The position numbers were made by a program, and so were the translations under genes. Positions 1 through 64,000 of a stretch of 64,000 nt of DNA are shown here, one piece after another. How positions within the stretch are numbered: the first letter of the stretch is position 1; each line of letters starts with the position of its first letter. The stretch comes from Escherichia phage dw-ec, in the sequence record OL739525.1; one strand, 5' to 3'. The notes beneath the pieces are model-generated. The model made no database searches. It saw only the letters and a program-made list of their open reading frames with translations, and had not been told where the DNA came from.

Positions 1-1
1 T

Positions 2-229
2 TCCCGTGAAGAGTTGATGACACAAGCTAGTGCAAAAATTCGCTCTTTACAAGAAACAGCGGTAGCACTTATAACACCTTTACAGTATGCTAAAGATTTA
101 GAAATGGCTACTGAAGACGAATTAGCTTATCTTAAAAATCTTCAAGTTTATGTAGTTAAACTAAATCGTGTTCCGCTTCAAAAAGACTATCCTTACGCTA
201 TAGATTGGCCTACATTACCGACAGAATAA
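2..229 (+). CDS. C-terminal fragment of a tail fibre assembly chaperone-like protein (5' end outside window)
   Basis: Reading frame is open to the left window edge; C-terminus ...VVKLNRVPLQKDYPYAIDWPTLPTE resembles the conserved C-terminal motif of caudoviral tail fibre assembly proteins; tentative. Confidence 0.4.
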   Translation, partial: SREELMTQASAKIRSLQETAVALITPLQYAKDLEMATEDELAYLKNLQVYVVKLNRVPLQKDYPYAIDWPTLPTE

Positions 230-238
230 GGGATCACT

Positions 239-574
239 ATGGAATTTCAAGAAGCATGGGGACTTGCAAAGGATGCAATAATCCCTTTAATCGGAGTCAT
301 CTGGTTCTTTTTCAAACAAAAAATGGATAAATTCGGCTCTGATCTTGAGGAAATGGAGGAGAAAAGTCGAGAGCTAGAGAAGAAGTTGGTCTTTGTTGAA
401 TCAACTTACGCAACTAAAGCCGAACTTACCCAGATGCTAAATCAAATTAACTCTACATTAATGGCAAATAACAACACCCTTGAGCAAAAAATTGAAAAGA
501 TTATGGACCTCAAGAATGCGACTATCCAAATGATGCTAGATGACATAGTTAAACGTACACAGAATAAGGGGTAA
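239..574 (+). CDS. hypothetical membrane-anchored coiled-coil protein
   Basis: ATG with AAGGG RBS; N-terminal hydrophobic helix (IIPLIGVIWFFF) followed by charged heptad-like sequence. Confidence 0.5.
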   Translation: MEFQEAWGLAKDAIIPLIGVIWFFFKQKMDKFGSDLEEMEEKSRELEKKLVFVESTYATKAELTQMLNQINSTLMANNNTLEQKIEKIMDLKNATIQMMLDDIVKRTQNKG

Positions 575-577
575 TTA

Positions 578-3500
578 ATGGCAACATTCCCAACATATCC
601 AGCAACGTCTCTCGAACAGGGCGTAGACCTGGTTATTTTCTCATCTAACCAACTCCATGATGTTATTAATGGAAGTGCTACAGAGAGTATTGAAACAGAA
701 TCAGGGTTGATACCAACCCTGAGAAAAGCCCTTGTTGACAACTTTTTCTTTAAAAGCCCATTGGATTGGGCGCAAGGCACAAACGAAACAGTTTTTAACC
801 AACTTCGTTATTTCCAGAATGGAGTATTGAGCGGTTATTACTATGCTCCTAACGCTACATTGGTTAACCCAATCCCTATGCAAGGGACTCCAGTAGGAGA
901 TAACAACTGGGTATTGTGGGGACTGAAAACAGAACAATTAGCAACAGAAGTCACCCCGTGGGTATACTCTGGTGCAACTGGTTATGAAACAGTAATTAGT
1001 CCTCCTTACATCTTTGATAGTGCTATTGTTACGATCAATGGTGTTATTCAGGTTCTGGGGGAAGCTTTCCGTATAGAAGACAGTAAGATCATCTTATCTG
1101 AACCTTTGGGACACGATCCTGCAACAGGACTGCCAAACAAGCTTTTTGCTTATATTGGTAAAATCGTAGCTTCAGCAGATACAGATCCTAATCTAGAGAA
1201 CCGTCTTGTTAGTTTAGAAACAAAAACGGAAGAACTAACAGAAAGCATGGATAAAGTCCCTCTGCAAACTATTGCTCGTAAGTATGGTTTGTTAGATGAT
1301 GAGGTGGCTTACGCAACAGCAGGTCAATCGTTAACAGGGATTAAAGCTCTGTACGATCCGGTAGCACAGTCTTCCTACACATTACCTCCTAACATCACAG
1401 GAACTTTAACATCCTTATCTGTTTCTGGAGTAATGACTTATTCTGGAGGATCTGTAGACCTTTCTGCACTGGCTGTTGAGCGTGGACAGTTTGTTCATTT
1501 GCCTACAAGCTTTGGTAATAACGTAACTCTGACAGCTAAAAATCAGACGATTGGACGTGGTGCTGGTCGTTATCGTTGGGCTGGAAGTTTACCAAAAAGT
1601 ATTTTGGCCTCTGATACATTGGAGACAAGCGGAGGATTAGGTCCAAATGCATGGGTTCTGACTAATACAGAAGGACTGTTAACCCCTCGTGGTGGAACAT
1701 ACAACGATCTATTCGATGTTGTCTACTTGTCAGAATTTGCTAACAATACAACTACCTATACCACACCAGAAGCAGCTTTCCAGGCGGCACTGTTAGCAGC
1801 AAAAGCTTCGAAAAGCAAGATTCTCGATGCTTACGGTTGCGACATGACTTTCACGACAAGCTCTTTTGATATTCAAGATATCACTTTGCGTGGTGGTGTG
1901 TTCCGTGGTCAACGCGACTATCGTGTGCAGAATGCTACAGTAGAAGGCACAACTTTCCGTAACTCTCGTGTTATGTATTGGGGTGGTGCTGTGCGCATGT
2001 TCGATTGTTTGTGGGACGGTGCTCCTCGCGCAGGTCAAGTTGGTAGCTTGGTATTCCAAGGCAACCCAATATCAGGTACTTTTGAAATTGATAATTGTAC
2101 TTTTAAAAACGGGTTATATGGTATTCTTCAACAAGGAACAGGGGAACCAGTAACACGCGGTGTCTTCCGTAACCTTACCTTCATGGACATGCAAGGTGAT
2201 GCAATAGAACTGAACGTCATCAATAAACATTATGACGATGGTTGTGTGATTGAGAATATTTACCTGTCTAATATCGATGGGACTAACGCTCCTATTCCTC
2301 TGTCCAACTGGGGTATCGGTATCGGTGTAGCTGGTAAAGGACCATATGGTTACGGAATCCCTGATGATCAATATTGTAAGAACATTACAATTCGTAACGT
2401 TTTTGCAAAACGTTGTCGTCAGATTGTCCACGTAGAAGTTGGTCGTAATATCTCTATCGAAAACATTCATGGCGATCCAGATCAAACCGTATCTGTTGGG
2501 ACAGGTTTGGCAACTGGCGCAGTTGTAATGTATGGAAGTAAAGACTTTACGATTGATGGTGTTTATGGAGAGCCTAAAACAGACGGTAGCACACTTGCAA
2601 GTAATATCCGTATGATTTACTTGGAGTGGGGAACTAACGCAGTTCTGGATGAAGAGGGTAATCCGGTAGTTCCGGCACAGGGCAGACCTTCAAACCCATG
2701 CTTTAACTATTCTGTTCGTAACGTTCACACCAAAACTGGGCGTGTTTTTGCGGGAGTTTCCGCTGGGCCAGGTTATGAAAACAGAGTTAGCTTTGAAAAT
2801 ATTCGTTGCGCTGCCTTGCAGTTGTTCGGTATAGCTTCTTGGCTTTCAATGTCTAACATCACCTGTAATATCTTCGATTGTGTTGGTCAACCTGAATCTG
2901 GTCCAGGGACATTTTATGATGGATTCTTCCGTAGAGAAAAATCTGTTCTTGAAATGGTTAACGTAAACTGTTACCCAGATGGCAAGACGATGGTTACTGG
3001 TCGTCCACAGTGGAGCCGTTGCCGTTACTCGGATATTCATCGTGTCAACTGTAATGTTGAAGCTAATATGTATACCAATATCGCAGGTGGTATTGGAGCT
3101 ATTGTAGGGACAACGGGCAAAGTTTATTACTTAGAGCCTAATCCTAGTCGAAACATTGATGGAATGCATTTCCCAACAGGGAAAGAGTTTGACAAAGGGG
3201 ATATGATAGTCAAGGCGGATAATACGTTCTTCCTTGTAACAACAAGTGGGGCATATATTCCAGATATCCCAGCTTTCGGTATTCGAGCTACACAGGCAGG
3301 AGATACCTTCCTGACACAGAACTTGACTCCTAACGGGACAGCAACAAATGCTTCTTGGTTGTATCATTACCCTCTGTCAGCAGGGACACGTATCCGTATT
3401 CCTGGCGCTGGTGTAGGTGGAGCAGATTTGGACACAGTTATTACTCGTGCACCTTATCAAGATAATGATACGTGGACTAACCCAGTTAAAATAGACATTG

Positions 3501-3631
3501 CAGATCCAATTGTAACGCCTACAAGTGCTGGAGTTAGAATTAAAACCATACCTAATGATTCCAGTAATGTTTCTGTAGGTAATACTGCGGTTATTCGCCC
3601 AACGCCAGTAGTAGATGTGCCAACAACCTAA
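578..3631 (+). CDS. tail spike / tail fibre protein with predicted right-handed beta-helix (possible depolymerase)
   Basis: 1017 aa ORF, ATG with AAGGGG RBS; long central region of Gly/Asn/Thr/Val-rich repeats typical of parallel beta-helix tailspikes; terminator hairpin immediately downstream. Confidence 0.75.
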   Translation: MATFPTYPATSLEQGVDLVIFSSNQLHDVINGSATESIETESGLIPTLRKALVDNFFFKSPLDWAQGTNETVFNQLRYFQNGVLSGYYYAPNATLVNPIPMQGTPVGDNNWVLWGLKTEQLATEVTPWVYSGATGYETVISPPYIFDSAIVTINGVIQVLGEAFRIEDSKIILSEPLGHDPATGLPNKLFAYIGKIVASADTDPNLENRLVSLETKTEELTESMDKVPLQTIARKYGLLDDEVAYATAGQSLTGIKALYDPVAQSSYTLPPNITGTLTSLSVSGVMTYSGGSVDLSALAVERGQFVHLPTSFGNNVTLTAKNQTIGRGAGRYRWAGSLPKSILASDTLETSGGLGPNAWVLTNTEGLLTPRGGTYNDLFDVVYLSEFANNTTTYTTPEAAFQAALLAAKASKSKILDAYGCDMTFTTSSFDIQDITLRGGVFRGQRDYRVQNATVEGTTFRNSRVMYWGGAVRMFDCLWDGAPRAGQVGSLVFQGNPISGTFEIDNCTFKNGLYGILQQGTGEPVTRGVFRNLTFMDMQGDAIELNVINKHYDDGCVIENIYLSNIDGTNAPIPLSNWGIGIGVAGKGPYGYGIPDDQYCKNITIRNVFAKRCRQIVHVEVGRNISIENIHGDPDQTVSVGTGLATGAVVMYGSKDFTIDGVYGEPKTDGSTLASNIRMIYLEWGTNAVLDEEGNPVVPAQGRPSNPCFNYSVRNVHTKTGRVFAGVSAGPGYENRVSFENIRCAALQLFGIASWLSMSNITCNIFDCVGQPESGPGTFYDGFFRREKSVLEMVNVNCYPDGKTMVTGRPQWSRCRYSDIHRVNCNVEANMYTNIAGGIGAIVGTTGKVYYLEPNPSRNIDGMHFPTGKEFDKGDMIVKADNTFFLVTTSGAYIPDIPAFGIRATQAGDTFLTQNLTPNGTATNASWLYHYPLSAGTRIRIPGAGVGGADLDTVITRAPYQDNDTWTNPVKIDIADPIVTPTSAGVRIKTIPNDSSNVSVGNTAVIRPTPVVDVPTT

Positions 3632-3637
3632 TGGAAT

Positions 3638-3660
3638 AGAGGGGGATTCCCCCTCTTCTT
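3638..3660 (+). terminator. rho-independent terminator
   Basis: GAGGGGG-att-CCCCCTC stem-loop followed by T-rich run, directly after stop of 578..3631. Confidence 0.6.
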
Positions 3661-3692
3661 CCAATAGAATGGTCTAATGATAGGAGAGATAA

Positions 3693-5717
3693 ATGAATTT
3701 AACAAGACCTAATAGTGCGATAGCCGATCTGGTAGAAGCTACTTATCGAAAACGTCGCAGCTTTGAGGCAGGTTTTACATTACGTAATTCCCGTGAAGTT
3801 TTGCTGTTAGCAGCAGAAGGGAATTATTACCAATGGAAAGGAACTTTTCCTAAAGTTGTTCCAGCAAACTCTACGCCAGCCACCACAGGTGGTATTTCTT
3901 CCCTTGCATGGCAAAGTGTTGGGACCGCTGATGATATAGCAATTATCAATGCCAAGTTTACGGCAATGCAGCAACAGATTGATGATCTGTCGGAAACAAT
4001 ACCTGAAGCTGGTAAATCGGCTTATCAGATCGCACTTGATAATGGTTTTGTTGGAACAGAAGCACAATGGCTTGCTTCTTTGAAAGGGGATACTGGTGCT
4101 CAACTTAATATTAAAGGATCATTAGCAAACACTAGTGAACTACCATCCACAGGTAACGTTGCAGGGGATGGTTATATCGTAGGTGATGTAATCTACGCTT
4201 GGGACGGTTCTGTTTGGAAACTTATTTCTTCTCTTGGGCCAGAAGGTAAATCAGCTTACGAGGTATGGTTGGCAGATGGTAATACAGGATCTGTTTATGA
4301 TTTTCTTACCTCTATAAAAGGTGATAAAGGTGATGTTGGTCCTACAGGGCCACAGGGAGCACCTGGTGTTAACGCCAACGGTTTTGATTATCGTGGGGAT
4401 TTGCCTTCTACAAGTAACTTACCACAACCAAACTCTGAAAACGTAAGTCAAGCTTATTCTATCAATGGTAATCTTTATGTCTCTAATGGGACAGCTTGGG
4501 TCAACATGGGTAATATTGTTGGTCCTCAAGGTCCACAAGGTGAGGCAGGTAAAGACGGTCTTGATGGAACAGATGGAGATGAAGGGAAATCTGCATATCA
4601 AAGTTGGCTGGATGCTGGTAATGAAGGGACAGAAGTAGATTTTATTGCCTCACTTAAAGGTCCAAAAGGAGACAAAGGTGATCAAGGAGAGCGAGGTCCA
4701 CAAGGTGAACTAGGTCCACAAGGACCAGTGGGTGCAACAGGATCAGGCTTAGATATTATCGGGGTTCTGAACAGTGAAGCTGAACTTCCTCCTACCGGAG
4801 AAGTAGGTGATGCATATAAAATTAATAATGATTTATATGTTTGGGTTCAAGATGCTACGGAATGGATGAATGTTGGCAGTCTTGGAGGAACATCAATTAC
4901 AGCTAAAGGTCATGTTCCGAACAGTGAAGCTCTCCCTGTTTATAATAACTATGGCGATGCCTACTTAACTGAAGACACTAGTAATCTTTACATCTATACC
5001 TACGATCAAGACACCAATTCCGCATCTTTTGTTGACATGGGAAGTATTAAAGGCGACAAAGGTGAAAAAGGGGATAAAGGAGATAAGGGTGATCCTGGAA
5101 CAAACGGAACCAACGGTACTGATGGGACCAACGGTAAGGACGGCGCACAGTGGTTTGTAGCAACAACTAATCCAGTTGCAGGAGACGGTGTTATCAATGA
5201 TTACGCCTTCAATACTACCACTGGAGCAGTGTTTAAGAAAACAGATTCTTCTACGTGGACGCTTATAGGCACTCTTCCTAGTATACCAGAAGCCCCTCAA
5301 GACGGCTTGACGTATGGTCGGTCTGATGGAAACTGGATCGAAATATCAGGATCAGATCCTACGGAAGCTATAACACCAACTAGAGTTACAGCAGGTTTCA
5401 TGGAACTTGAAACAACTGCTGCCAACTCTGGAGCATCTTGGACTCCTTCTGGAACTTCCAATATGTATGTTGTTACAGTAACTGATGCTCTGACAGTTGG
5501 AGCATGGCCTGGTGTCACTGGCTCTACAAAACCTAAAGCGTTTTCAGCAATGATTTATTTGATTCAAGATACAACGGGACACACGGTTACACTAGATGCG
5601 TCTTATGGAGCACTAAATGATACAGAAATAGCAACTGCTGCTAACGCAGTAACAATTTTGCAATTAACGTATCCTGGTGTGGGTGATATCGTGGACATGG
5701 TTGTTGTAACACGATAA
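3693..5717 (+). CDS. collagen-like tail fibre protein
   Basis: 674 aa; several Gly-X-Y runs (GPQGPQGEAGKDGLDGTDG, KGDKGEKGDKGDKGDPGTNGTNGTDG); three copies of a GKSAYxxWLxxG..GT..xFxxSLKG motif and four ~30-aa LPxxGxxGDAYxIxxDLYVW repeats. Confidence 0.8.
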   Translation: MNLTRPNSAIADLVEATYRKRRSFEAGFTLRNSREVLLLAAEGNYYQWKGTFPKVVPANSTPATTGGISSLAWQSVGTADDIAIINAKFTAMQQQIDDLSETIPEAGKSAYQIALDNGFVGTEAQWLASLKGDTGAQLNIKGSLANTSELPSTGNVAGDGYIVGDVIYAWDGSVWKLISSLGPEGKSAYEVWLADGNTGSVYDFLTSIKGDKGDVGPTGPQGAPGVNANGFDYRGDLPSTSNLPQPNSENVSQAYSINGNLYVSNGTAWVNMGNIVGPQGPQGEAGKDGLDGTDGDEGKSAYQSWLDAGNEGTEVDFIASLKGPKGDKGDQGERGPQGELGPQGPVGATGSGLDIIGVLNSEAELPPTGEVGDAYKINNDLYVWVQDATEWMNVGSLGGTSITAKGHVPNSEALPVYNNYGDAYLTEDTSNLYIYTYDQDTNSASFVDMGSIKGDKGEKGDKGDKGDPGTNGTNGTDGTNGKDGAQWFVATTNPVAGDGVINDYAFNTTTGAVFKKTDSSTWTLIGTLPSIPEAPQDGLTYGRSDGNWIEISGSDPTEAITPTRVTAGFMELETTAANSGASWTPSGTSNMYVVTVTDALTVGAWPGVTGSTKPKAFSAMIYLIQDTTGHTVTLDASYGALNDTEIATAANAVTILQLTYPGVGDIVDMVVVTR

Positions 5718-5721
5718 CAGA

Positions 5722-5746
5722 AGCCCCGAAAGGGGCTTTCTTTTTA
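5722..5746 (+). terminator. rho-independent terminator
   Basis: GCCCC-gaaa-GGGGC stem-loop (GNRA loop) followed by TTTCTTTTT. Confidence 0.7.
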
Positions 5747-5758
5747 TGGAGGGTTTAA

Positions 5759-8431
5759 ATGTTTCCAATTCCAATATTTACTATTATGACCAGCACTGGT
5801 GTCGTTCCTCTGCCAGCGGGTATTGTTAAAAAAGTAATCACTTTAGATTACCCAGATAATGCTGGTAATTCTAACAGCAGTTTAGCAATTTTGCTTAATG
5901 ATGGTAGATTGTTTACTCAAGGCGCAAACCTTTTTGGTGAGATTGCAGATGGAACTCGTAGTGCACGATTCAATAATTTCCACTTAGCTTCTACTGTAGT
6001 AGCGGATGTGTTTACCGCAGATCGTTGTTTTGTTATTAAAACTAACAGCGGGGGATGGCAATATTCAGGATTGACAGCAGGGTTGGTAGGATCTATAGCA
6101 GCAGGTGGTACGGATGCATGTGTAACTACTTGGACCAGCTTTCCATCTGTAATAACAGGGACTATCTCTTTAGCCAATCTTAAAGAGGTTAAAGGAGGGT
6201 ATAACAATACTCTTTGGTTAATGAATAGCGGTGTTCTTTATGGATCGGGTCAAAACACAGTAGGCAGTTTAGGTGCAAGCACTACTAACGAAGTTTCTAC
6301 TCCCCGTCAGATAACAAGTTCAGCAGTTGCTTTTGATGCAGGTTATAACCAATGCTCTTATGTCAACAATGCGGGAACCTTGCGTGTTTGTGGAGCTAGT
6401 AAAGGTTTAGCAGGTAATAATAACACAACAACCGCTTTTGTCAATGCCACGATATCCACTACTGAAACAGTGTATGTCAAAGATTACATCAATACAGTTT
6501 CCCAGACAATAGTTGTAGGAGATACCTCCGGTGGCGCGGGTACAGTAAACTACTTATATGTTAGATCTAATACAGAAACAACCTACACTAAACTGGACAC
6601 CTTTGCAGCAGGTTTCTCAACATGGAAATTTCCACCAAGCCGCCACTCTTTTTTCGTTGGGATCAATAATTCCTTGTGGGCTATTGGTAAGAACTACACT
6701 GCAAACTTAGGTTTGGGATATGATTCTGCGAGCGGAGATCCACTCCAAGTGGGAAAACCAGTTAAACCTGAAGGAGTGGGTTCCTGGGATATAAACAAGC
6801 TCACAAGCGTTCATACGTTGAATATGGATATTACTAACCAATTAGGTTATCAAGGAACCTTTTTCGTTTATAACGGGGATATGTATTATTCCGGTATTTG
6901 GAAAGATGGGAAAGCCTCGTATCTGTTCAATAGTGGTCTAAACTATAATAAATTCACACCAATAGCAAGCTCCGTGATTACGGGGGATGTTCTGGCAACT
7001 GGCTTAACTACAGATTCTTTAGGAATTTGTATTGTAGGTGGAACTAAACAGTTGACACATTCTGTTAGCCCAGAAGGAGGTAAACTTTTCAATATTAAAT
7101 ACACTTCTTCTGCCCCTGCAAACATGACAATATCATCTACTGGTTTAATGACTTTCCATGCAGAAGGTGGTTTTGATGCAGGTATGACAGCCTTAAACGC
7201 TGAAGGAACAACTTTATCAGATACCTCTGGAGGATATGCTTCAACATTGAGTGTTTACACCCCTAGCTTATCTGCGATGGATGTAGGAACAACACAAACA
7301 ATGGTAGCAGAAATAACGCCAACAGGAGCAGCAAGCTTACCTGGTATGGTTGTTGAGTATACAACTACAGATCCTAATGTTGCTACAGTAGATCCTACAA
7401 CTGGTGTAATAACTGGTGTTGGTGATGGTGGTTGTAGAATTGGTTGCACAGCTACATATCAAGGTGTTGTTACCGCTTCTGATAGTTCTTATTTAACGGT
7501 GAACGCTGTTGCGGGAAAGGAGTTAGCTCCATCTCCGAGTAGTAGTTTAACGGTTCTAAACGGATATTTCAACCACTCGGCAGATGGGGCAATTACGTTC
7601 CCAATTTTATCGGGTACTGTCACACCAGCTAACTTTGTAGTTAAGGTGGATGACGTTGTAATACCTTCAAATAAAGTAATATTTAGAAATAAAGCTTTCT
7701 CTACAGTGGATAGTTATCCAGCAGGAGAATATAGACTGGCTATTGAATTTGCAAGTGCTTCAGTAGTGAATAGTGTTGATGTGTCTATGGAAGCAAATCC
7801 AGATCTTTTAGAATTATGGGGCGGCAACAGAATTGGTTATTCTACAAGCCCAGCCTCACAATTCTTAAAAGGTTGTGCTAACTTAAGACGAATAACTTCT
7901 GATTGTTTTAGTAACACATCTTACACCGGAACATCTATAAGTGGTATCTTCTCTGGCTGTACAAGTTTGACAGCTATCCCTGAAGGATTATTCAGTGATG
8001 CTTTATTTCCTTCAATGACAACAATGTCAAGCACGTTTGAAGGTTGTACATCTTTAACATCTATTCCTTCAGATTTATTTAAAAATCTATCAAAAGTTAC
8101 AAGATATTCTTACACCTTTAAAGATTGCACCTCTCTTGCAGAAGTTCCAGCAGGAATGTTTGATAATATTCCAACGAAAGTGACCTCTTTAACAGCTACA
8201 TTCCAAGGTTGTTTAGCACTTACAGATTTTAATAAAATCTTTAATGACAACCCAGGGTTAACTGTTTGTGGTAAACGTGGAGCATTATCTTCTTTCTTTA
8301 GTGGATGCACAAATCTTACAGGAACAGGAACAACATTAACAAATACATTAGGCGGAGTAGCTAATAGTTACCTATTCAGGTATTGCACAAAACTTTCTGA
8401 TTATAACAATATTCCTTCGGGTTATAAATAA
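5759..8431 (+). CDS. tail fibre / adhesin with RCC1-like repeats, Big_2-like Ig domain and BspA-type leucine-rich repeats
   Basis: 890 aa; N-terminal G.N..G.LG repeats (RCC1-like); central segment resembling bacterial Ig-like group 2 domain (TQTMVAEITPTGAASLPGMVVEYTTTDPNVATVDPTTGVITGVGDGG); C-terminal repeats F.GCTSLT.IP..LF typical of LRR_5. Confidence 0.75.
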   Translation: MFPIPIFTIMTSTGVVPLPAGIVKKVITLDYPDNAGNSNSSLAILLNDGRLFTQGANLFGEIADGTRSARFNNFHLASTVVADVFTADRCFVIKTNSGGWQYSGLTAGLVGSIAAGGTDACVTTWTSFPSVITGTISLANLKEVKGGYNNTLWLMNSGVLYGSGQNTVGSLGASTTNEVSTPRQITSSAVAFDAGYNQCSYVNNAGTLRVCGASKGLAGNNNTTTAFVNATISTTETVYVKDYINTVSQTIVVGDTSGGAGTVNYLYVRSNTETTYTKLDTFAAGFSTWKFPPSRHSFFVGINNSLWAIGKNYTANLGLGYDSASGDPLQVGKPVKPEGVGSWDINKLTSVHTLNMDITNQLGYQGTFFVYNGDMYYSGIWKDGKASYLFNSGLNYNKFTPIASSVITGDVLATGLTTDSLGICIVGGTKQLTHSVSPEGGKLFNIKYTSSAPANMTISSTGLMTFHAEGGFDAGMTALNAEGTTLSDTSGGYASTLSVYTPSLSAMDVGTTQTMVAEITPTGAASLPGMVVEYTTTDPNVATVDPTTGVITGVGDGGCRIGCTATYQGVVTASDSSYLTVNAVAGKELAPSPSSSLTVLNGYFNHSADGAITFPILSGTVTPANFVVKVDDVVIPSNKVIFRNKAFSTVDSYPAGEYRLAIEFASASVVNSVDVSMEANPDLLELWGGNRIGYSTSPASQFLKGCANLRRITSDCFSNTSYTGTSISGIFSGCTSLTAIPEGLFSDALFPSMTTMSSTFEGCTSLTSIPSDLFKNLSKVTRYSYTFKDCTSLAEVPAGMFDNIPTKVTSLTATFQGCLALTDFNKIFNDNPGLTVCGKRGALSSFFSGCTNLTGTGTTLTNTLGGVANSYLFRYCTKLSDYNNIPSGYK

Positions 8432-8433
8432 GA

Positions 8434-8460
8434 AAAGGAGCCATTTGGCTCCTTTCTTTT
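8434..8460 (+). terminator. rho-independent terminator (possibly bidirectional)
   Basis: GGAGCC-attt-GGCTCC stem-loop followed by TTTCTTTT after stop of 5759..8431. Confidence 0.7.
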
Positions 8461-8497
8461 ATAAAGTTAACTCTTCCCATGTTCTTGTGCCGCTTCT

Positions 8498-8520
8498 GGG
8501 GGGCCCCCCCCCCCCCCCCC
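8498..8520. repeat. G6-C17 homopolymer tract
   Basis: GGGGGG followed by 17 consecutive C in the convergent intergenic gap between late and minus-strand blocks. Confidence 0.9.
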
Positions 8521-8535
8521 TATAGATCAATAAGA

Positions 8536-9423
8536 TCAGAATGGAATATCATCATCGAAGTCCATTGGAGGTTCTTCTTGATTACTTGGAGTTGGTTCTG
8601 GTTGTGGTTCAGGTTTTTTAACTTCTTTCTTCTCTTCTTTCTTAGGTTGTTCTGCGGAACCACGAATGGCAGCAGCAACTTTATCAGACAAAGCTAGAAC
8701 TTTACGAGCAGAGTCAATCAAATCTTCTACAGATACAGTCTTAATGGTATGGTCTTTACAAGCATTGAGGATAGCGTGACCAACAGATGCCCCAAGATCA
8801 TAATCATTAATGTCAACGCCACGAGATTCAGCAATTTCCGATTTCAGCGTGACAGTTGCAGATTGAACAACCCCAGCGATATCGAAAGCATCACCTTTAA
8901 CACCATTACGAATCAGTTCCAGTGCACCATTTACTGCGTGACCAGTTTCCAGACCTACAGTATCACGTTTTTTATAGGACTGCTTAGGAGCAGCATCGTT
9001 GGAACCTTTATTGCCAGAAGATTTGTTAGACTTCTGAACACCATCGGTAGACAATACTGTAATACGAGATTTTTTAGTATTGTAGTAAGTTTTACCGCCT
9101 TTATTATCAACGCGATCAATATCAATACTTACTTCTACACCTTTTTCAATAGTGATCCAATTATCACCTTCTTTGACTTGCAGGTTTTCATAACCTTCTT
9201 TCAGTTCAATGTCACCAAGAGAAATCCAAACACCTTTCTCATCTGGTTTAGCACCTTTCTCTTTCAGAACAAGAGAAGCTCGGTGAGTTGAAACAATCGT
9301 TTTTCCTTCCCAATGAAAAGTTTTAGGTTCAGCGAATTTATCCAGTTTAACGTAGTCTACGATACCAGTTGCATAAGTTACGGTTTTGCCTTTACGATCA
9401 GTTTCAGTATTAATTACGGACAT
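8536..9423 (-). CDS. putative ssDNA-binding protein carrying a host SSB-type C-terminal tip
   Basis: 295 aa, ATG with GAGGAG RBS; Lys/Pro/Glu-rich linker then C-terminal PPMDFDDDIPF, the same nine-residue tip as E. coli SSB; N-terminal domain not obviously E. coli-SSB-like. Confidence 0.55.
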   Translation of the reverse strand: MSVINTETDRKGKTVTYATGIVDYVKLDKFAEPKTFHWEGKTIVSTHRASLVLKEKGAKPDEKGVWISLGDIELKEGYENLQVKEGDNWITIEKGVEVSIDIDRVDNKGGKTYYNTKKSRITVLSTDGVQKSNKSSGNKGSNDAAPKQSYKKRDTVGLETGHAVNGALELIRNGVKGDAFDIAGVVQSATVTLKSEIAESRGVDINDYDLGASVGHAILNACKDHTIKTVSVEDLIDSARKVLALSDKVAAAIRGSAEQPKKEEKKEVKKPEPQPEPTPSNQEEPPMDFDDDIPF

Positions 9424-9439
9424 TATTATCTCCTCTACA

Positions 9440-9832
9440 TTACATTAATTTTGCACAGAAAGAGCGGAGTCTTTCCATATCATCTTGCTCTAACAGGTAT
9501 TTACCTTTACCTATTCCAACTCCAATTTCACCATTAGGGAAATGAACTATTTGCACTGGAAAACCTCCGAGTTTAATTGTGGCAGCTTTGCCTTCTTCGT
9601 CTATAACGTTTCGGATTGTATCTTGCAGTGAAATGAATTCTTTGTTTGTAACAGTGGTTTCAATTATTTCAGATGTTTCAACACGAGCAGTTAGCTTCTT
9701 GTTTCCACCTTGAATAACCAAAATTTGAAAATAAAAAGAGTTGTCAAGACCTACAACATTTTTCTCAACTAGTGTCAAACTGGTATAGTTTCCATAAACA
9801 GTTTCAACAGCTATCTTAGAACGTTCAGTCAT
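9440..9832 (-). CDS. hypothetical protein
   Basis: 130 aa ORF co-directional with replication block. Confidence 0.55.
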   Translation of the reverse strand: MTERSKIAVETVYGNYTSLTLVEKNVVGLDNSFYFQILVIQGGNKKLTARVETSEIIETTVTNKEFISLQDTIRNVIDEEGKAATIKLGGFPVQIVHFPNGEIGVGIGKGKYLLEQDDMERLRSFCAKLM

Positions 9833-9877
9833 TGAATGCTATCCTATCATAAAATGTTTAATATTGTCAAGCTTTAA

Positions 9878-10471
9878 TTACCAAGGAATATCCTCTTCTT
9901 CCAATCTGGTATCTACTTGAGGTGGACGTGGAACCTTAACCTCTTTCACAAAACGAAGATATGGGAAACGTGTAGCAATTTTAATAACGTGTTTGGCATC
10001 TTCTCTAACGTCTTTGTGCAAGAAGCAGATCCCTGTTTCCAAGGTTGTTTCAAAATCTTTAGAATAATAACAATCCTTCCCATCAAATGCAGCCTGGCAG
10101 ATGGACAGATCGAACTCATTTAGAAAGGTTGTCATTACGCTTGGTTCCATAATCATAAGGTTGCAAAGCTGACCATCACGTTCAAACTCAAAAACGTGTT
10201 TAAGACCAGTAACACCTTCATAATTGTCAGAAGCCTCTTTGTTTCCTAGTTTACGAATATTGGTTCCCATTAAAGCAGATGCAATTAATCCTTGTATTTG
10301 TTCTTCAGTCCGATGTGCAGGAAGGGATGTATAGAAATCAAGATCACGTCCAGCAATATCAAGAATACGCCAATCACGAACAGCACCGCCAGCCAAGACA
10401 GAATTAGGATCAGCGATCTTTAATACGGTAAGAATTTCTTTGGCAATATTGATTTGTTTTGATTTAGTCAT
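9878..10471 (-). CDS. nucleotidyltransferase-fold protein (pol-beta superfamily head domain-like) with acidic IPW C-terminus
   Basis: GGAVRDWRILDIAGRDLDFYT resembles the GGAVRD...DxD head motif of CCA-adding / poly(A) polymerase class II NTases; C-terminus EEEDIPW resembles SSB tip. Confidence 0.45.
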   Translation of the reverse strand: MTKSKQINIAKEILTVLKIADPNSVLAGGAVRDWRILDIAGRDLDFYTSLPAHRTEEQIQGLIASALMGTNIRKLGNKEASDNYEGVTGLKHVFEFERDGQLCNLMIMEPSVMTTFLNEFDLSICQAAFDGKDCYYSKDFETTLETGICFLHKDVREDAKHVIKIATRFPYLRFVKEVKVPRPPQVDTRLEEEDIPW

Positions 10472-49574: not shown

Positions 49575-49763
49575 ATGGCACGTTTAGCAGATCATGAAAT
49601 CTTTAAACCTATTCTGAACCATTATAATGAACTTAAAGCAGTGTTGGATTGTTATAAAGAGGATGAAGAACGCTTGGAAGTCAATCTTAAGATAGTTCTG
49701 ATGAAAGCTTTTCAAGACGGGCAAGCTGAAGTCTTAAGAGGTATGAAAAATGCGAATAACTGA
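49575..49763 (+). CDS. hypothetical protein
   Basis: ATG at 49575 with AAGGAGA RBS. Confidence 0.5.
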   Translation: MARLADHEIFKPILNHYNELKAVLDCYKEDEERLEVNLKIVLMKAFQDGQAEVLRGMKNANN

Positions 49764-50283
49764 TGAATATGTATTCTTCTTTTCACATAAAGATGTGTTT
49801 AGCAATTGGTACATTGCACCATTCACAGAGACGGAACCAGGGTACAGTGAGACTTTCTGTTGTGTAGAGCAATACATGATGTGGCGTAAGGCTTTGCTGT
49901 TCAAGGATCAGGTAATCGCAGCAGCTATCCTTGATCACTCAATGAAGCGAGACGACGAGAAGGGACAGGCATACTACAAGCGTATGGGTCGAGCGGTGTC
50001 TGGTTTTAATAATGACATGTGGGAAGAGTACCGAGAGCGTATCGTAATGCGAGGCTTATGCTTGAAGTATACACAGAACCCTGATCTTTACTCTGACTTG
50101 CGACTGTACCAATTCAAAACGTTCGTTGAGGCGAGTCCTTATGATAAGGTTTACGGAATTGGAATGGGTATGTACGAACCAGGGGTGCTTAATCCTGCCA
50201 ACTGGAAAGGGCAGAATCTTTTAGGTAAATATCATAATAAACTGATCGAAATACTTTTCCCAGACAAAATACCGCAAAGATGA
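49750..50283 (+). CDS. NADAR-domain protein (YbiA-like)
   Basis: 177 aa; FFFSHKDVFSNWY, CVEQYMMWRKALLF and KYTQNPDL..L segments fit the NADAR/DUF1768 fold family. Confidence 0.6.
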   Translation: MRITDEYVFFFSHKDVFSNWYIAPFTETEPGYSETFCCVEQYMMWRKALLFKDQVIAAAILDHSMKRDDEKGQAYYKRMGRAVSGFNNDMWEEYRERIVMRGLCLKYTQNPDLYSDLRLYQFKTFVEASPYDKVYGIGMGMYEPGVLNPANWKGQNLLGKYHNKLIEILFPDKIPQR

Positions 50284-50535
50284 TATTTGTGATATTTTAA
50301 CTTTTTTCATTTTTAGAACAAAGGTGTCACTTTGTAGCACAGAAATAAGGCTCCTACAGCACCGTAGAGAGCCTGTTATTTTGTCCTATACAAACCCTTA
50401 TCTTTTTCAGTTTGCATCACTAAGATTCGATCTAAGTGGGTTCCTGAAGGTCTACTAATAAGATTAAAGGTTATATCAAATTCCCACTATCCATTATCTC
50501 AAAAATCCCTCAAATTATTTAAACTTTTTAAGAAT

Positions 50536-50720
50536 TTACAAAAGTGAAAGTTGAAAACCAAAATTTAAAGTTTAGGAAAATTATCTTAAAATGTTAGATA
50601 CAAAACAAAACTCAAAAGTCAAGGAAAATTTTAAAAATTTTGCGCGCCCACAGTATTTAAAGTTTTTTTGCTTTTACAAAAATGAAAGTACAAAAGCAAA
50701 ATTTAAAGTTTACAAAAATT
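50536..50720. repeat. AT-rich direct repeats (two ~47-bp copies plus partial copies)
   Basis: 50536..50582 and 50674..50720 about 83% identical (TTACAAAA.TGAAAGT...AAAATTTAAAGTTTA..AAAATT); ATTTAAAGTTT occurs three times. Confidence 0.7.
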
Positions 50721-50731
50721 TTTATGCAGGT

Positions 50732-50752
50732 GAGAATGAGAAGAGTTCTCAT
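50732..50752. promoter_or_regulatory. palindromic operator-like site (ATGAGAA-gag-TTCTCAT)
   Basis: Perfect 7-bp inverted repeat; same half-site family as the Fur-box-like elements. Confidence 0.4.
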
Positions 50753-50762
50753 ATGGAAATGC

Positions 50763-50783
50763 AAATGATAATGATTCGCATTT
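50763..50783. promoter_or_regulatory. Fur-box-like element
   Basis: AAATGATAATGATTCGCATTT, partial match to GATAATGATAATCATTATC. Confidence 0.4.
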
Positions 50784-50820
50784 AAGTTTATAAATGAGAT
50801 TGATTCTTATTTAATAAGGT

Positions 50821-50850
50821 AAATGATAATCATTCTCATTTAGAGAATGA
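50821..50850. promoter_or_regulatory. Fur-box-like element with TCATTCTC-attta-GAGAATGA palindrome
   Basis: AATGATAATCATTCTC matches 15 of 16 positions of the Fur-box core AATGATAATCATTATC. Confidence 0.5.
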
Positions 50851-51098
50851 CGCGCAGGGGCGGTGTTTGTCTCGCGCTCCCGTGTCCCCTCGCCATGTAA
50901 TAAGAATAACAGATCCAGCCAGGAAAGCAAGCGATTATTTTATCTTTACATTTCTTTACAAATATATAGCGCCCAGCCTACCGGCGATCAACCTTCCAAC
51001 CAGCGCCCTGGTATGTTAGCCCCGCCTTTACGCCGTGGGGTGGCGCTTCCTCTTCTGTATGTAAAACAGTATAAGCCCGATCCCTGGGCTTGTCAAGA

Positions 51099-51365
51099 TT
51101 ATTTTTTGTTTTCTTGCCAGGATAGGACACCTAACCAAAAATACATATCGCCCCGCGCCCCTGGTGGTATCTTGCTTTCCCCGCCGCCACTGCAAGCCCA
51201 TAGATAACCATTTGCGAACGTATCAAAATGATCTATCTCTTCCACCTTATGATCGCCCAGGTTGAGAACGGTTTCAACCTTTAAGCCCGTTGCGCTTGCT
51301 ACCTGGTGCACCGTGCCGCCTTGCCAGCCCAATGAGTGCATAAGGTGTAATGTAGTAGTTGTCAT
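51099..51365 (-). CDS. hypothetical protein in GC-rich island
   Basis: 88 aa ORF with protein-like composition; surrounding 50860..51560 noticeably GC-richer than the rest of the window. Confidence 0.4.
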   Translation of the reverse strand: MTTTTLHLMHSLGWQGGTVHQVASATGLKVETVLNLGDHKVEEIDHFDTFANGYLWACSGGGESKIPPGARGDMYFWLGVLSWQENKK

Positions 51366-51842: not shown

Positions 51843-51904
51843 TTGACAACAACCAACAACCTGATAAGATGTATCACATAGGGCGGCGGAATGGTCCACC
51901 GCTC
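51843..51904 (+). promoter_or_regulatory. promoter-leader cassette P1 (TTGACA-16-TAAGAT + leader stem-loop)
   Basis: -35 51843..51848, -10 51865..51870, then GTATCACATAGGGCGGCGGAATGGTCCACCGCTC hairpin and AGAAGAGAG leader. Confidence 0.7.
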
Positions 51905-53280: not shown

Positions 53281-53341
53281 TTGACAACGTTTTTTAATCT
53301 GATAAGATGTATCACATAGGGCGGCGGAATACTTCCCCGCC
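53281..53341 (+). promoter_or_regulatory. promoter-leader cassette P4
   Basis: TTGACA-16-TAAGAT, GTATCACATAGGGCGGCGGAATACTTCCCCGCC. Confidence 0.65.
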
Positions 53342-62095: not shown

Positions 62096-62515
62096 ATGAA
62101 CATTAAATCAAATAATCCAGCTTACTCCTTCGATAACGCTTTTTGTCACGGTAGCGCCGCCAAAGGCTTCGAAATCGATGGTAAATTGGTTATCGTGAAC
62201 GTTGACGGGGAAGAGGTTGCAGTGTATCCGGTAAACGATGTTAAAAGCCGTTTACAATGCCGTATGGATGTTACCGCATATCAGCTTGATCCGATCCGTG
62301 TAGTTGCCCTGGTATTAGAGGAAGAGATCAAAGCAATGCATCACAGTAATAAGTTTATTGGTGACGCGCAGGATAATATGAACGTTTGCCGCCATAAAGT
62401 TAATGAAGCACTGAAAGAATGCGGTTTTAAGGATCTGATGATCAAACGTGATGAAAAATTCCGCTTTCGTAATGACCTGGCAAACCGGATCTACTCAATC
62501 TATGAAGCGTTATAA
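62096..62515 (+). CDS. hypothetical early protein
   Basis: 139 aa ORF, last gene before the non-coding A+C-rich region. Confidence 0.55.
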   Translation: MNIKSNNPAYSFDNAFCHGSAAKGFEIDGKLVIVNVDGEEVAVYPVNDVKSRLQCRMDVTAYQLDPIRVVALVLEEEIKAMHHSNKFIGDAQDNMNVCRHKVNEALKECGFKDLMIKRDEKFRFRNDLANRIYSIYEAL

Positions 62516-62528
62516 TTGACAACAAAAC

Positions 62529-62556
62529 AAGGGCGCACCAAGCGCCCTTTCTTTTT
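62529..62556 (+). terminator. rho-independent terminator
   Basis: GGGCGC-accaa-GCGCCC followed by TTTCTTTTT; identical core to 56622. Confidence 0.7.
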
Positions 62557-63130
62557 GCCCGAACAATGTTGATAGCTTTCGCCTATGAAAAACCGACACA
62601 GAACAAAATTGAATAAATCGCGGTATCGAGCTAATCAACCATTAAACGAATAACCATACCTCCCAGGGTAACAGGCTGTTAGAGAGCCATTTATAGCGGT
62701 TAAAATCGATCAACAACCAACAACAAACCATCAAAAACACCCTTCTACCTCCTTTCTAGTGCAATGATAACCATTATCATCTACCCATGATTATCTATGC
62801 AATATAAGCGCATAATTATAATGTTGATAATAGTTCGCAACAACTAACCAACAAACAACATAAAACAATAAGCAAACTAATCATAATCAAAGGAATAATA
62901 GCAAGATGATTGATAACGACAAACAATCAAACCATGATGAATACTAAGCAAAATAACGATAACACGACAAAACAACCAACTAACGAACAATAACAAACGA
63001 AACCATTAAAATAATAACTATTGCCATAATAGTGACTGAATGAAATCATTACAAAACGAATCATTCACAGGATCATCATTAGCACGCTATGCCGGACACA
63101 TAGCGAGCTAATAATAAGCCAACTACACCC
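62557..63130 (+). other. ORF-free, strongly A+C-skewed non-coding region
   Basis: No ORF of 60 aa or more in any frame from 62516 to the window end; plus strand dominated by A and C with CAA/AAC-type triplet runs. Confidence 0.7.
62765..62779. promoter_or_regulatory. palindrome TGATAA-cca-TTATCA
   Basis: Inverted repeat of Fur-box-like hexamers. Confidence 0.4.
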
Positions 63131-63138
63131 CAACAATC

Positions 63139-63206
63139 ATAACCATCGGTGATGGTTATTTCTTGTTACTGCGTAGCTTGCAATAATTGCAAGCGTAATG
63201 ACGCTT
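63139..63206. repeat. cluster of three distinct palindromes
   Basis: ATAACCATC-ggt-GATGGTTAT (63139..63159), CTTGCAAT-a-ATTGCAAG (63177..63193), AAGCGT-aatg-ACGCTT (63191..63206). Confidence 0.7.
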
Positions 63207-63590
63207 ACACTTATTGCGCTGGCTTATTATTAGCATTATATGTAATTACCAAGATCATAACATTAGCGCAATAACAATAATCATTGTAATGGTTACAATA
63301 TGAAATCATTAGCAGGATGAATAATTGCACGTAGCAACATGAGCGAATAGCGACAGGTTGCATAGTGTGCACATAATAGAATAAAAGTCAATAATTTTGG
63401 GGGCGAAATGTTACCGCCACGGGCGGGAATGTTGAGCACTAAGAAAAGAGATAAACCTTAATCATGGGGGCGTAAATATCCGCAGGATTGCCAACGGCGA
63501 TCCGGTAGGATGTTGAGCATCTTCTCTTAAACGTAAATAAAATCAGAAAATTCTTGATTTATTCTGGTTTTTATGTTAATAAACGTTTAA

Positions 63591-63610
63591 ATAATAATCA
63601 TTCTCATATG
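63591..63610. promoter_or_regulatory. Fur-box-like element
   Basis: ATAATAATCATTCTCATATG; shares ATAATCATTCTCAT core with 50826..50839. Confidence 0.45.
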
Positions 63611-63766
63611 AATAATAGTCCGTCTGTCATGAGCGGCATTAGTTGACATTGTTCCGTCATATGATGAAGTTGCCAAACCATTGATAAATAAGCGTTTGTG
63701 TGATTTATAATCAAGTGGCCCACCTTGTCGCTATGTTGGCATAAGCCTTGCATAAGTCATTGAATA

Positions 63767-63789
63767 CGAATGATAATTATTCTCATTCG
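63767..63789. promoter_or_regulatory. Fur-box-like palindromic element
   Basis: CGAATGA-taattattc-TCATTCG. Confidence 0.45.
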
Positions 63790-63895
63790 CATGATATTTG
63801 GGAATTGTCGCTGCGTGGACCTGACGGCCCGAAAATTCGCGTTAGGTTAAACACCCAAGCAGACGCCGCAATATCAGCACCGACAGGAAACACAA

Positions 63896-64000
63896 AGACA
63901 CCGACAACTTTCTTGTCACATGTGTACTTCGTTCAGTTTCGAATGTTCGGGTGTTTATGCAATCGTAAGCCCTACCGTGACAAGAAAGTTGTCGGTGTCT
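63896..64000. repeat. 24-bp perfect inverted repeat (arms 63896..63919 and 63977..64000) flanking a 57-nt spacer
   Basis: AGACACCGACAACTTTCTTGTCAC and its exact reverse complement; right arm touches the window edge. Confidence 0.8.

Follow-up and report, generated by a model that had tools for sequence, protein, structure and literature searches.

Fur operators of the E. coli chromosome, among them those of ryhB, fhuA and fepD-entS, follow a 19-bp GATAATGATAATCATTATC type that is built from GATAAT hexamers, and they overlap the -35/-10 region of the promoter that they regulate. On phage DNA, Fur boxes are to our knowledge known only as ordinary cargo-gene operators in temperate phages; a Fur box lies, for example, ahead of the prophage cargo gene stx1. 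Sites for other host factors occur in phage packaging regions as well, namely the IHF sites in lambda cosB. For the cis-acting injection-stop signal of the lytic phage T5, we know of no mechanism that has been established since the 1980s. Prophage cargo of the sitABCD type on lambdoid coliphages carries single Fur operators at the promoters of iron-related cargo genes (PMC6969025). The T5 iss region, which corresponds to 'Repeat Region 3' in the long terminal repeat, contains palindromes and DRC repeats to which Davison assigned no function, and Fur is absent from that paper (bioRxiv 10.1101/866236). A literature search for Fur sites in lytic phages or their termini, in T5 or in Phapecoctavirus returned nothing relevant.

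Here we analyze Fur-box-like elements close to the end of a virulent phage genome. The window, a stretch of 64,000 nucleotides from Escherichia phage dw-ec (record OL739525.1), represents the right-hand 64 kb of the genome of a Phapecoctavirus (phAPEC8-like) phage of E. coli and is collinear with positions 86,881-151,425 of the complete genome of phage BI-EHEC. phAPEC8-like phages are myophages of ~150 kb that belong to the subfamily Stephanstirmvirinae. For the last 1.5 kb of the window, 72 matching phage records were found, almost exclusively Phapecoctavirus and with identities of 90-98%; a plasmid origin was rejected, as the plasmid collection gave no match. The following features define the genome end:

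63516..63843, no strand: direct terminal repeat of 328 bp, right-end copy, defined by the BI-EHEC ends and by record boundaries; it holds both boxes.
63516..63560, no strand: conserved block at the left repeat edge, AGCAnnTTCTCTTAAACGTAAATAAAATCAGAAAAnTCTTGATTT, nearly invariant in a six-sequence alignment.
63826..63843, no strand: conserved block at the right repeat edge, GGCCnnAAAATTCGCGTT, which ends at the physical genome end; AAAATTCGCGTT is invariant in the alignment.
63399-63439 and 63466-63519, plus strand: two copies of GGGGGCG-(GC hairpin)-ATGTTGAGCA, recognized by sequence reading and as repeat family D12.
63845..64000, no strand: sequencing artefact, consisting of an Oxford Nanopore PCR-barcoding adapter, primer tail and barcode 01, followed by part of a sequencing adapter and by the barcode once more in inverted orientation.

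The repeat is identical at both ends of the linear genome and has fixed boundaries: Positions 1-328 and 151098-151425 of BI-EHEC are 100% identical and both align to 63516-63843, and ten distinct phage records begin or end precisely at the repeat boundaries, several of them carrying it twice, once at each end. For phage Schickermooser, a terminal repeat of 328 bp has also been published (PMC6563267). While only the right-end copy is contained in this window, the location of box A and box B inside a direct terminal repeat implies that each virion DNA carries them at both ends. Similarity to every phage record ends at 63843/63844, and the sequence beyond is not phage DNA: Positions 63845-63867 are the exact reverse complement of the start of the Oxford Nanopore barcode adapter (23 nt), 63868-63890 match the PCR primer tail noisily, and 63891-63914 are the exact reverse complement of barcode 01 (24 nt), after which a sequencing-adapter fragment and barcode flank (noisy matches) and barcode 01 in the opposite orientation extend up to 64000. 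As nanopore adapters are ligated to DNA ends, this ligation-type adapter independently marks 63843 as a physical terminus, so that the repeat boundary coincides with the end of the DNA. In practical terms, an untrimmed nanopore adapter is flagged at the end of the assembly and the physical genome terminus of the phage is fixed. The earlier note had read the boxes at both of its loci as each preceding a GC-rich structured segment. This does not hold at the present locus, which lies inside the terminal repeat: The GC-rich stretch is composed of the natural right end of the repeat (63795-63843) and the adapter, and the apparent structure downstream of the boxes is the inverted pair of barcode 01 copies.

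The left-edge block (63516-63560) is a candidate end-processing signal, and both repeat edges (63516-63560 and 63826-63843) are better candidates than the boxes for recognition by terminase. The second copy of the GGGGGCG..ATGTTGAGCA element ends across the left repeat boundary (ATGTTG|AGCA), and distant relatives have a single copy that ends at the same boundary; the element is a candidate cleavage or recognition signal for making the terminal repeat. Further to the left, positions 62516-63260 comprise ~750 bases of A-rich non-coding DNA with CAACAACCAACAAC-type runs after a terminator at 62529-62549. This stretch contains no ORF of more than 45 aa and is ~95% identical to relatives whose terminal repeat is merely 70% identical; its conservation could be due to a packaging site, an origin or a long RNA. 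Small protein genes were rejected for the terminal non-coding region as a whole, as 62516-63843 holds no ORF of more than 53 aa.

Likeness to Fur operators was scored with a symmetric 19-bp matrix that was derived from ten E. coli K-12 Fur-regulated promoter regions only (fepA-fes, fepD-entS, fepB-entC, fhuA, fur, fiu, tonB, cirA, ryhB and fecI). On this matrix, which started from the textbook consensus, was symmetrized and hence favours consensus-like palindromes, the training operators reach 12.4-18.6 bits (8.3-16.0 bits leave-one-out) and the phage boxes 13-19 bits. The terminal region holds the following sites:

63589..63609, plus strand: box A, a Fur-box-like 21-mer, AAATAATAATCATTCTCATAT, 74-94 bases from the left repeat edge.
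63767..63789, plus strand: box B, CGAATGATAATTATTCTCATTCG, a pair of Fur 19-mers that overlap with an offset of six bases; its distance from the right genome end is 55-77 bases.
62760..62784, plus strand: further Fur-matrix site, TGCAATGATAACCATTATCATCTAC, 15.0 bits, located in terminal non-coding DNA, with the repeat following 0.75 kb downstream.
63222..63240, plus strand: further Fur-matrix site, GCTTATTATTAGCATTATA, 14.3 bits (12.0 bits in distant relatives).

Both elements of the repeat are present as the earlier note had described them, ATAATAATCATTCTCAT at 63591-63607 and the CGAATGA-N9-TCATTCG palindrome at 63767-63789, about 12.8 kb from a cluster at 50732-50841 that is hereafter called locus 1. 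Box A scores 13.2 bits (match at 63587), and its 17-mer ATAATAATCATTCTCAT is identical to the Fur operator of E. coli ryhB, with 15 nt being identical to the fhuA operator. The flanks around this identity are unrelated, which indicates convergence and not transfer; acquisition of a host promoter fragment is ruled out because the identity to ryhB and fhuA ends at the box. Box B yields two matches of 15.0 and 16.7 bits (at 63766 and 63772), which overlap at a distance of six bases like those of genuine Fur operators, and its ATTCTCATTCGCA is common to the ryhB operator. Thus, in their agreement with the 19-bp consensus and the GATAAT hexamer array the boxes equal proven operators.

Conservation was assessed in distant relatives, the proposed 'Wecvirus' group (phiWec179, phiWec188 and PsgM04F), which are ~70% identical across the repeat. 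In box A, GAATAATAATCATTCTCAT is invariant in these phages while its flanks diverge. Box B takes the form CGAATGATAATGATAATTATTCTCATT with one added GATAAT hexamer; the 19-mer GATAATGATAATTATTCTC within it agrees with the Fur consensus at 17/19 positions and scores 20.9 bits, and the outer CGAATGA..TCATTCG symmetry is gone. An insertion of exactly this hexamer fits Fur sites that are organized as hexamer arrays and thereby argues against a rigid palindrome-specific protein. The upstream site TGCAATGATAACCATTATCATCTAC is likewise identical in the distant relatives, which constitutes a weak footprint because the whole surrounding region is ~95% conserved.

The number of sites by far exceeds expectation. 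In the window, 15 matrix matches of at least 12 bits compare with 1.5 ± 1.3 in Markov resamplings; the 328-bp repeat alone holds 3 matches, with 0.02 expected (P<0.001, dinucleotide shuffles); and in the local non-coding stretches of both loci the number of matches and the top score are each significant at P<0.001 in dinucleotide shuffles. Throughout the BI-EHEC genome, 14/17 matches of at least 12 bits fall either into one of the repeat copies or into the final 13 kb. Independently of the matrix, ATAATCATTCTCAT with up to two mismatches occurs 8 times in the window (1.24 expected), a count that was reached in 0/100 shuffles, and a search for the 7-1-7 Fur pattern that allowed up to three mismatches gave 22 instances where 7.8 are expected, a loose count that is inflated by promoter-like sites of the TGATAAGATGTATCA type. 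The latter sequence recurs at 51862 and 53300 (51843-51876 and 53300-53314), and its first copy is preceded by TTGACA at a distance of 16 bases (TTGACA-16-TG-TAAGAT), which resembles an ordinary early promoter. Taken together, the motif is non-random, conserved and, as far as its sequence goes, indistinguishable from strong E. coli Fur operators.

In consensus scans, promoter-like sites around the repeat were no commoner than in shuffles, and no sigma-70 promoter that overlaps the repeat boxes is conserved between the two phage groups. In the absence of such a promoter the defining architecture of a classical Fur operator is not found there, and a model of occlusion by an operator placed over a promoter was rejected for these boxes. 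Records that are not cut at the terminus continue past the repeat as ...CGCGTTA|AGCACTTC, with the first gene beyond the repeat beginning 285 bases on. The proposal of the earlier note that a shared regulator controls two units therefore stands in part: A single element family, Fur-box-like and conserved by the evidence of matrix, shuffles and relatives, recurs at both loci, which makes one common DNA-binding factor, most plausibly host Fur, a reasonable inference; the control of two units finds no support in a repeat without a conserved sigma-70 promoter over its boxes and with the next gene beginning only 285 bases past its end. The genes that flank both loci are small and without assigned function, except for a NADAR-domain protein upstream of locus 1 (49750-50283, Pfam E = 7e-34), whose homologue carries the label 'GTP cyclohydrolase II' in some GenBank records, an apparent mis-annotation. 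A search of the phage for a Fur homologue by tblastn gave nothing below E = 3, and a phage-encoded Fur was rejected on this basis. The window has no Rfam match at gathering level, with 50650-51250 and 62400-63850 yielding chance-level matches only; neither a tRNA nor a known RNA family was found.

Locus 1 lies in an 815-bp gap between the NADAR-domain gene and a lone minus-strand ORF and comprises the following features:

50732-50750, 50763-50783, 50792-50812 and 50821-50841, plus strand: four boxes of the same family as box A and box B, with centres ~30 bases apart.
50842..51100, minus strand: conserved GC-rich non-coding segment beside the boxes, 70-76% nucleotide identity in Stephanstirmvirinae and Vequintavirinae.
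51096-51068, minus strand: P1, a sigma-70-type promoter with conserved hexamers that reads toward the boxes.
50930-50903, minus strand: P2, a second promoter of this type, also with conserved hexamers and reading toward the boxes.

The boxes score 13.9, 14.5/13.3 and 19.1 bits, with the third (50792-50812) remaining below 9.5. The last box, which does not vary between two phage subfamilies, is conserved, together with ~230 nt of GC-rich DNA to its right, in phi92-like, rV5-like, Seunavirus and Certrevirus phages. Within this DNA, the -35 and -10 hexamers of P1 and P2 are kept and their spacers vary. Only a weak TTTACA-17-GAGAAT sequence overlaps the first box. The GC-rich segment has no Rfam match; a single pair covaries clearly and one hairpin varies in its loop, and covariation for a consensus RNA structure is weak only. 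The segment might represent a small RNA gene or an origin that is activated (primed) by transcription. To the left of the boxes, positions 50440-50740 have 26% GC and carry imperfect tandem repeats (aaagtttaGGaaaatt / aaatttaaagtttacaaaaatt), which in combination with the tandem promoters give locus 1 an origin-like appearance. The minus-strand ORF 51099-51365 was rejected as a conserved partner of the boxes, since the ORFs at that position in 4MG and PVP-SE1 are unrelated. Between locus 1 and the repeat boxes, the longest common stretches measure 19-21 nt and comprise boxes only, which led us to reject a larger repeat or a mobile element common to both. The objection raised in advance by the earlier note, that the copies might belong to a larger dispersed repeat, consequently applies only insofar as box A and box B reside in a terminal repeat that is present twice per virion DNA; this repeat is not common to locus 1.

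The same boxes occur in T5-like, rV5-like, Seunavirus and Certrevirus phages. The box cluster of locus 1 is 81-87% identical to T5-like phages over 55-62 nt (BLAST), and Kenya-K37, EC100 and T5 contain arrays of the same 21-bp palindromes, in which several sites reach up to 18 bits on the Fur matrix. In T5, the array at 9550-9720 consists of six palindromes and is located inside the annotated injection stop signal (9140-10149) near DnaA boxes; a further site of 16 bits is found at 228-252, 228 bases from the left end and inside the dmp gene. A tblastx comparison of T5 1-9200, from the first-step-transfer region, with the BI-EHEC genome gave no match, and an early protein common to T5 and this phage was rejected within these first 9.2 kb. 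Beyond reference phages, the exact 19-mer AATGA(G/T)AATCATTCTCATT was found in at least 120 viral contigs of IMG/VR (L028-L147), a count that is not an unbiased survey because the pattern was picked from the phage variant (TGAGAAT/ATTCTCA); ~109 of these contigs lack similarity to the reference phages compared. In contigs L061 and L037 the box directly follows a TTGACA-17-TATAAT promoter, and in L119 three perfect copies exactly 30 bases apart are situated upstream of two consensus promoters. The first 170 bases of the rV5-like phage bov22_2, in a record whose position 1 is not confirmed as a physical end, show weak Fur-like boxes of 10-12 bits, which are followed by ~1.3 kb more of non-coding DNA.

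Against this background, we think it probable that host Fur binds these sites, be it for blocking transcription or for being titrated. The reading that we prefer, with a confidence that falls slightly short of even, is that box A and box B are conserved binding sites of host Fur that serve as an iron-dependent block to transcription, the latter function being a guess. In an iron-replete cell, Fe2+-Fur dimers would occupy the boxes, probably in a cooperative manner at locus 1 where the box centres are about three helical turns apart. Bound Fur would then block transcription that crosses the genome end or a concatemer junction in the repeat, as well as transcription from P1 and P2 at locus 1, and scarcity of iron would lift the block. 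Recognition by Fur is suggested by the scores on a matrix from E. coli alone, the enrichment, the identity to ryhB and fhuA, the footprint in relatives and the presence of the boxes in unrelated phage families. The positions of the boxes, which lie off promoters in the repeat and downstream of strong promoters at locus 1 and in several other phages, make a roadblock the most likely mode of action. Speaking against such a block, no promoter that overlaps or clearly reads into the repeat boxes is conserved, and it is hard to see what a strictly lytic phage would gain from a brake that depends on iron; modification of the phage DNA, if present, might also hinder Fur from binding. Alternatively, the boxes might act as a Fur decoy that titrates Fur, derepresses host iron uptake and RyhB and thereby supplies the phage with iron. 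Derepression of the Fur regulon by multicopy Fur boxes is the principle of the Fur titration assay, and each replicating genome brings along about a dozen strong sites; these are arrays of the high-affinity type in non-coding DNA without an overlapping promoter, as also in the untranslated DNA of T5, and 14 strong sites are clustered in the terminal 13 kb and both repeat copies. Neither conserved positions in the terminal repeat nor a fixed spacing beside conserved promoters would however be needed for titration, and we regard it as a quite unlikely purpose of the boxes.

The likeness to Fur operators could also be incidental if the boxes were operators of a phage-encoded DNA-binding protein. 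Palindromic 21-mers with conserved outer AAATG..CATTT arms and ~30-base spacing, placed in early-gene and terminal regions that are full of small unassigned genes, would suit such a protein, which would nevertheless have to recognize boxes that match E. coli operators as well as or better than these operators match each other and that tolerate the insertion of a GATAAT hexamer. Moreover, the motif is common to phage families without a detected common early protein (for T5, the first 9.2 kb were compared) and to viral contigs of which most are unrelated to these phages; we therefore judge this explanation unlikely. Terminase or the replication or ejection machinery might also read the boxes as cis signals in end formation, packaging, DNA entry or replication, a role that is suggested by analogy with the homologous arrays in the T5 injection stop signal, by the placement inside the terminal repeat at 55-94 bases from either end and by the origin-like order of tandem promoters, boxes and AT-rich repeats at locus 1. 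Furthermore, an exact box is found within 320 bases of a contig end in 14/39 whole contigs (3.7 expected), an enrichment that may stem from terminal repeats or merely from assemblies breaking at repeats. Since other phages have the same box internally and immediately behind ordinary promoters, and since the repeat-edge blocks and the GGGGGCG..ATGTTGAGCA element are better terminase candidates, we consider this role decidedly doubtful. Chance AT-rich palindromes or -10-like sequences without specific function might be expected in an AT-rich phage (~39% GC), in which TGATAAT resembles an extended -10 and weak consensus matches elsewhere, e.g. TGATAAGATGTATCA, look like early promoters. The local dinucleotide shuffles (P<0.001) and boxes that stay invariant between diverging flanks effectively refute this explanation, to which we attach a negligible probability.

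On a broader scale, Fur-box arrays might be a widespread and hitherto overlooked cis-element of the ends and early control regions of virulent phages by which host Fur or iron status gates an early step (DNA entry, transcription across termini or origin firing), or by which the phage titrates Fur. This generalization, which we propose as a long shot from sequence comparison, would cover the terminal repeat of phAPEC8-like phages, the locus-1 element of rV5-like and phi92-like phages and the injection-stop palindromes of T5. If it is true that lytic phages read the iron status of their host or manipulate its Fur regulon, the reading of iron status would matter for infection in the gut and for phage therapy where iron is limiting. 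Beyond this, the presence of the same arrays in the injection-stop region offers a concrete and cheap experiment on the T5 question.

Compared with the known systems, the phage boxes are closest in sequence to the Fur operators of E. coli: They are of the same 19-bp type with GATAAT hexamers, and their scores equal or exceed those of the chromosomal operators. In contrast to these, the repeat boxes lie over no conserved promoter and beside no iron gene, and they are part of the terminal repeat of a virulent phage. The T5 iss arrays share the 21-bp palindromes (AAATGAGAATCATTATCATTT and similar), the spacing of ~30-35 bases and the setting in untranslated terminal-repeat DNA. However, T5 has a repeat of ~10 kb with the array ~500-670 bases inside its inner boundary beside DnaA boxes and DRD repeats, whereas the repeat of the present phage measures 328 bp and contains two single boxes, with the array of locus 1 being 12.8 kb away from the end. 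The location typical of T5, that is a stop of first-step transfer in a ~10 kb repeat with DnaA-box inverted repeats, is thus not reproduced here; no DnaA boxes were seen beside the phage boxes on reading the sequence, and we know of no two-step DNA transfer in this phage group. With the Fur boxes of prophage cargo genes, the present boxes have in common that host Fur sites reside on phage DNA. Those are single operators at promoters in temperate phages, while here multiple sites occur in a virulent phage with no linked iron gene or identified promoter. The IHF sites in lambda cosB, finally, involve a different protein and a different motif, and they correspond to the boxes described here in that the site of a host DNA-binding protein, in our case a putative one, is conserved in a cis-acting region at the genome end.
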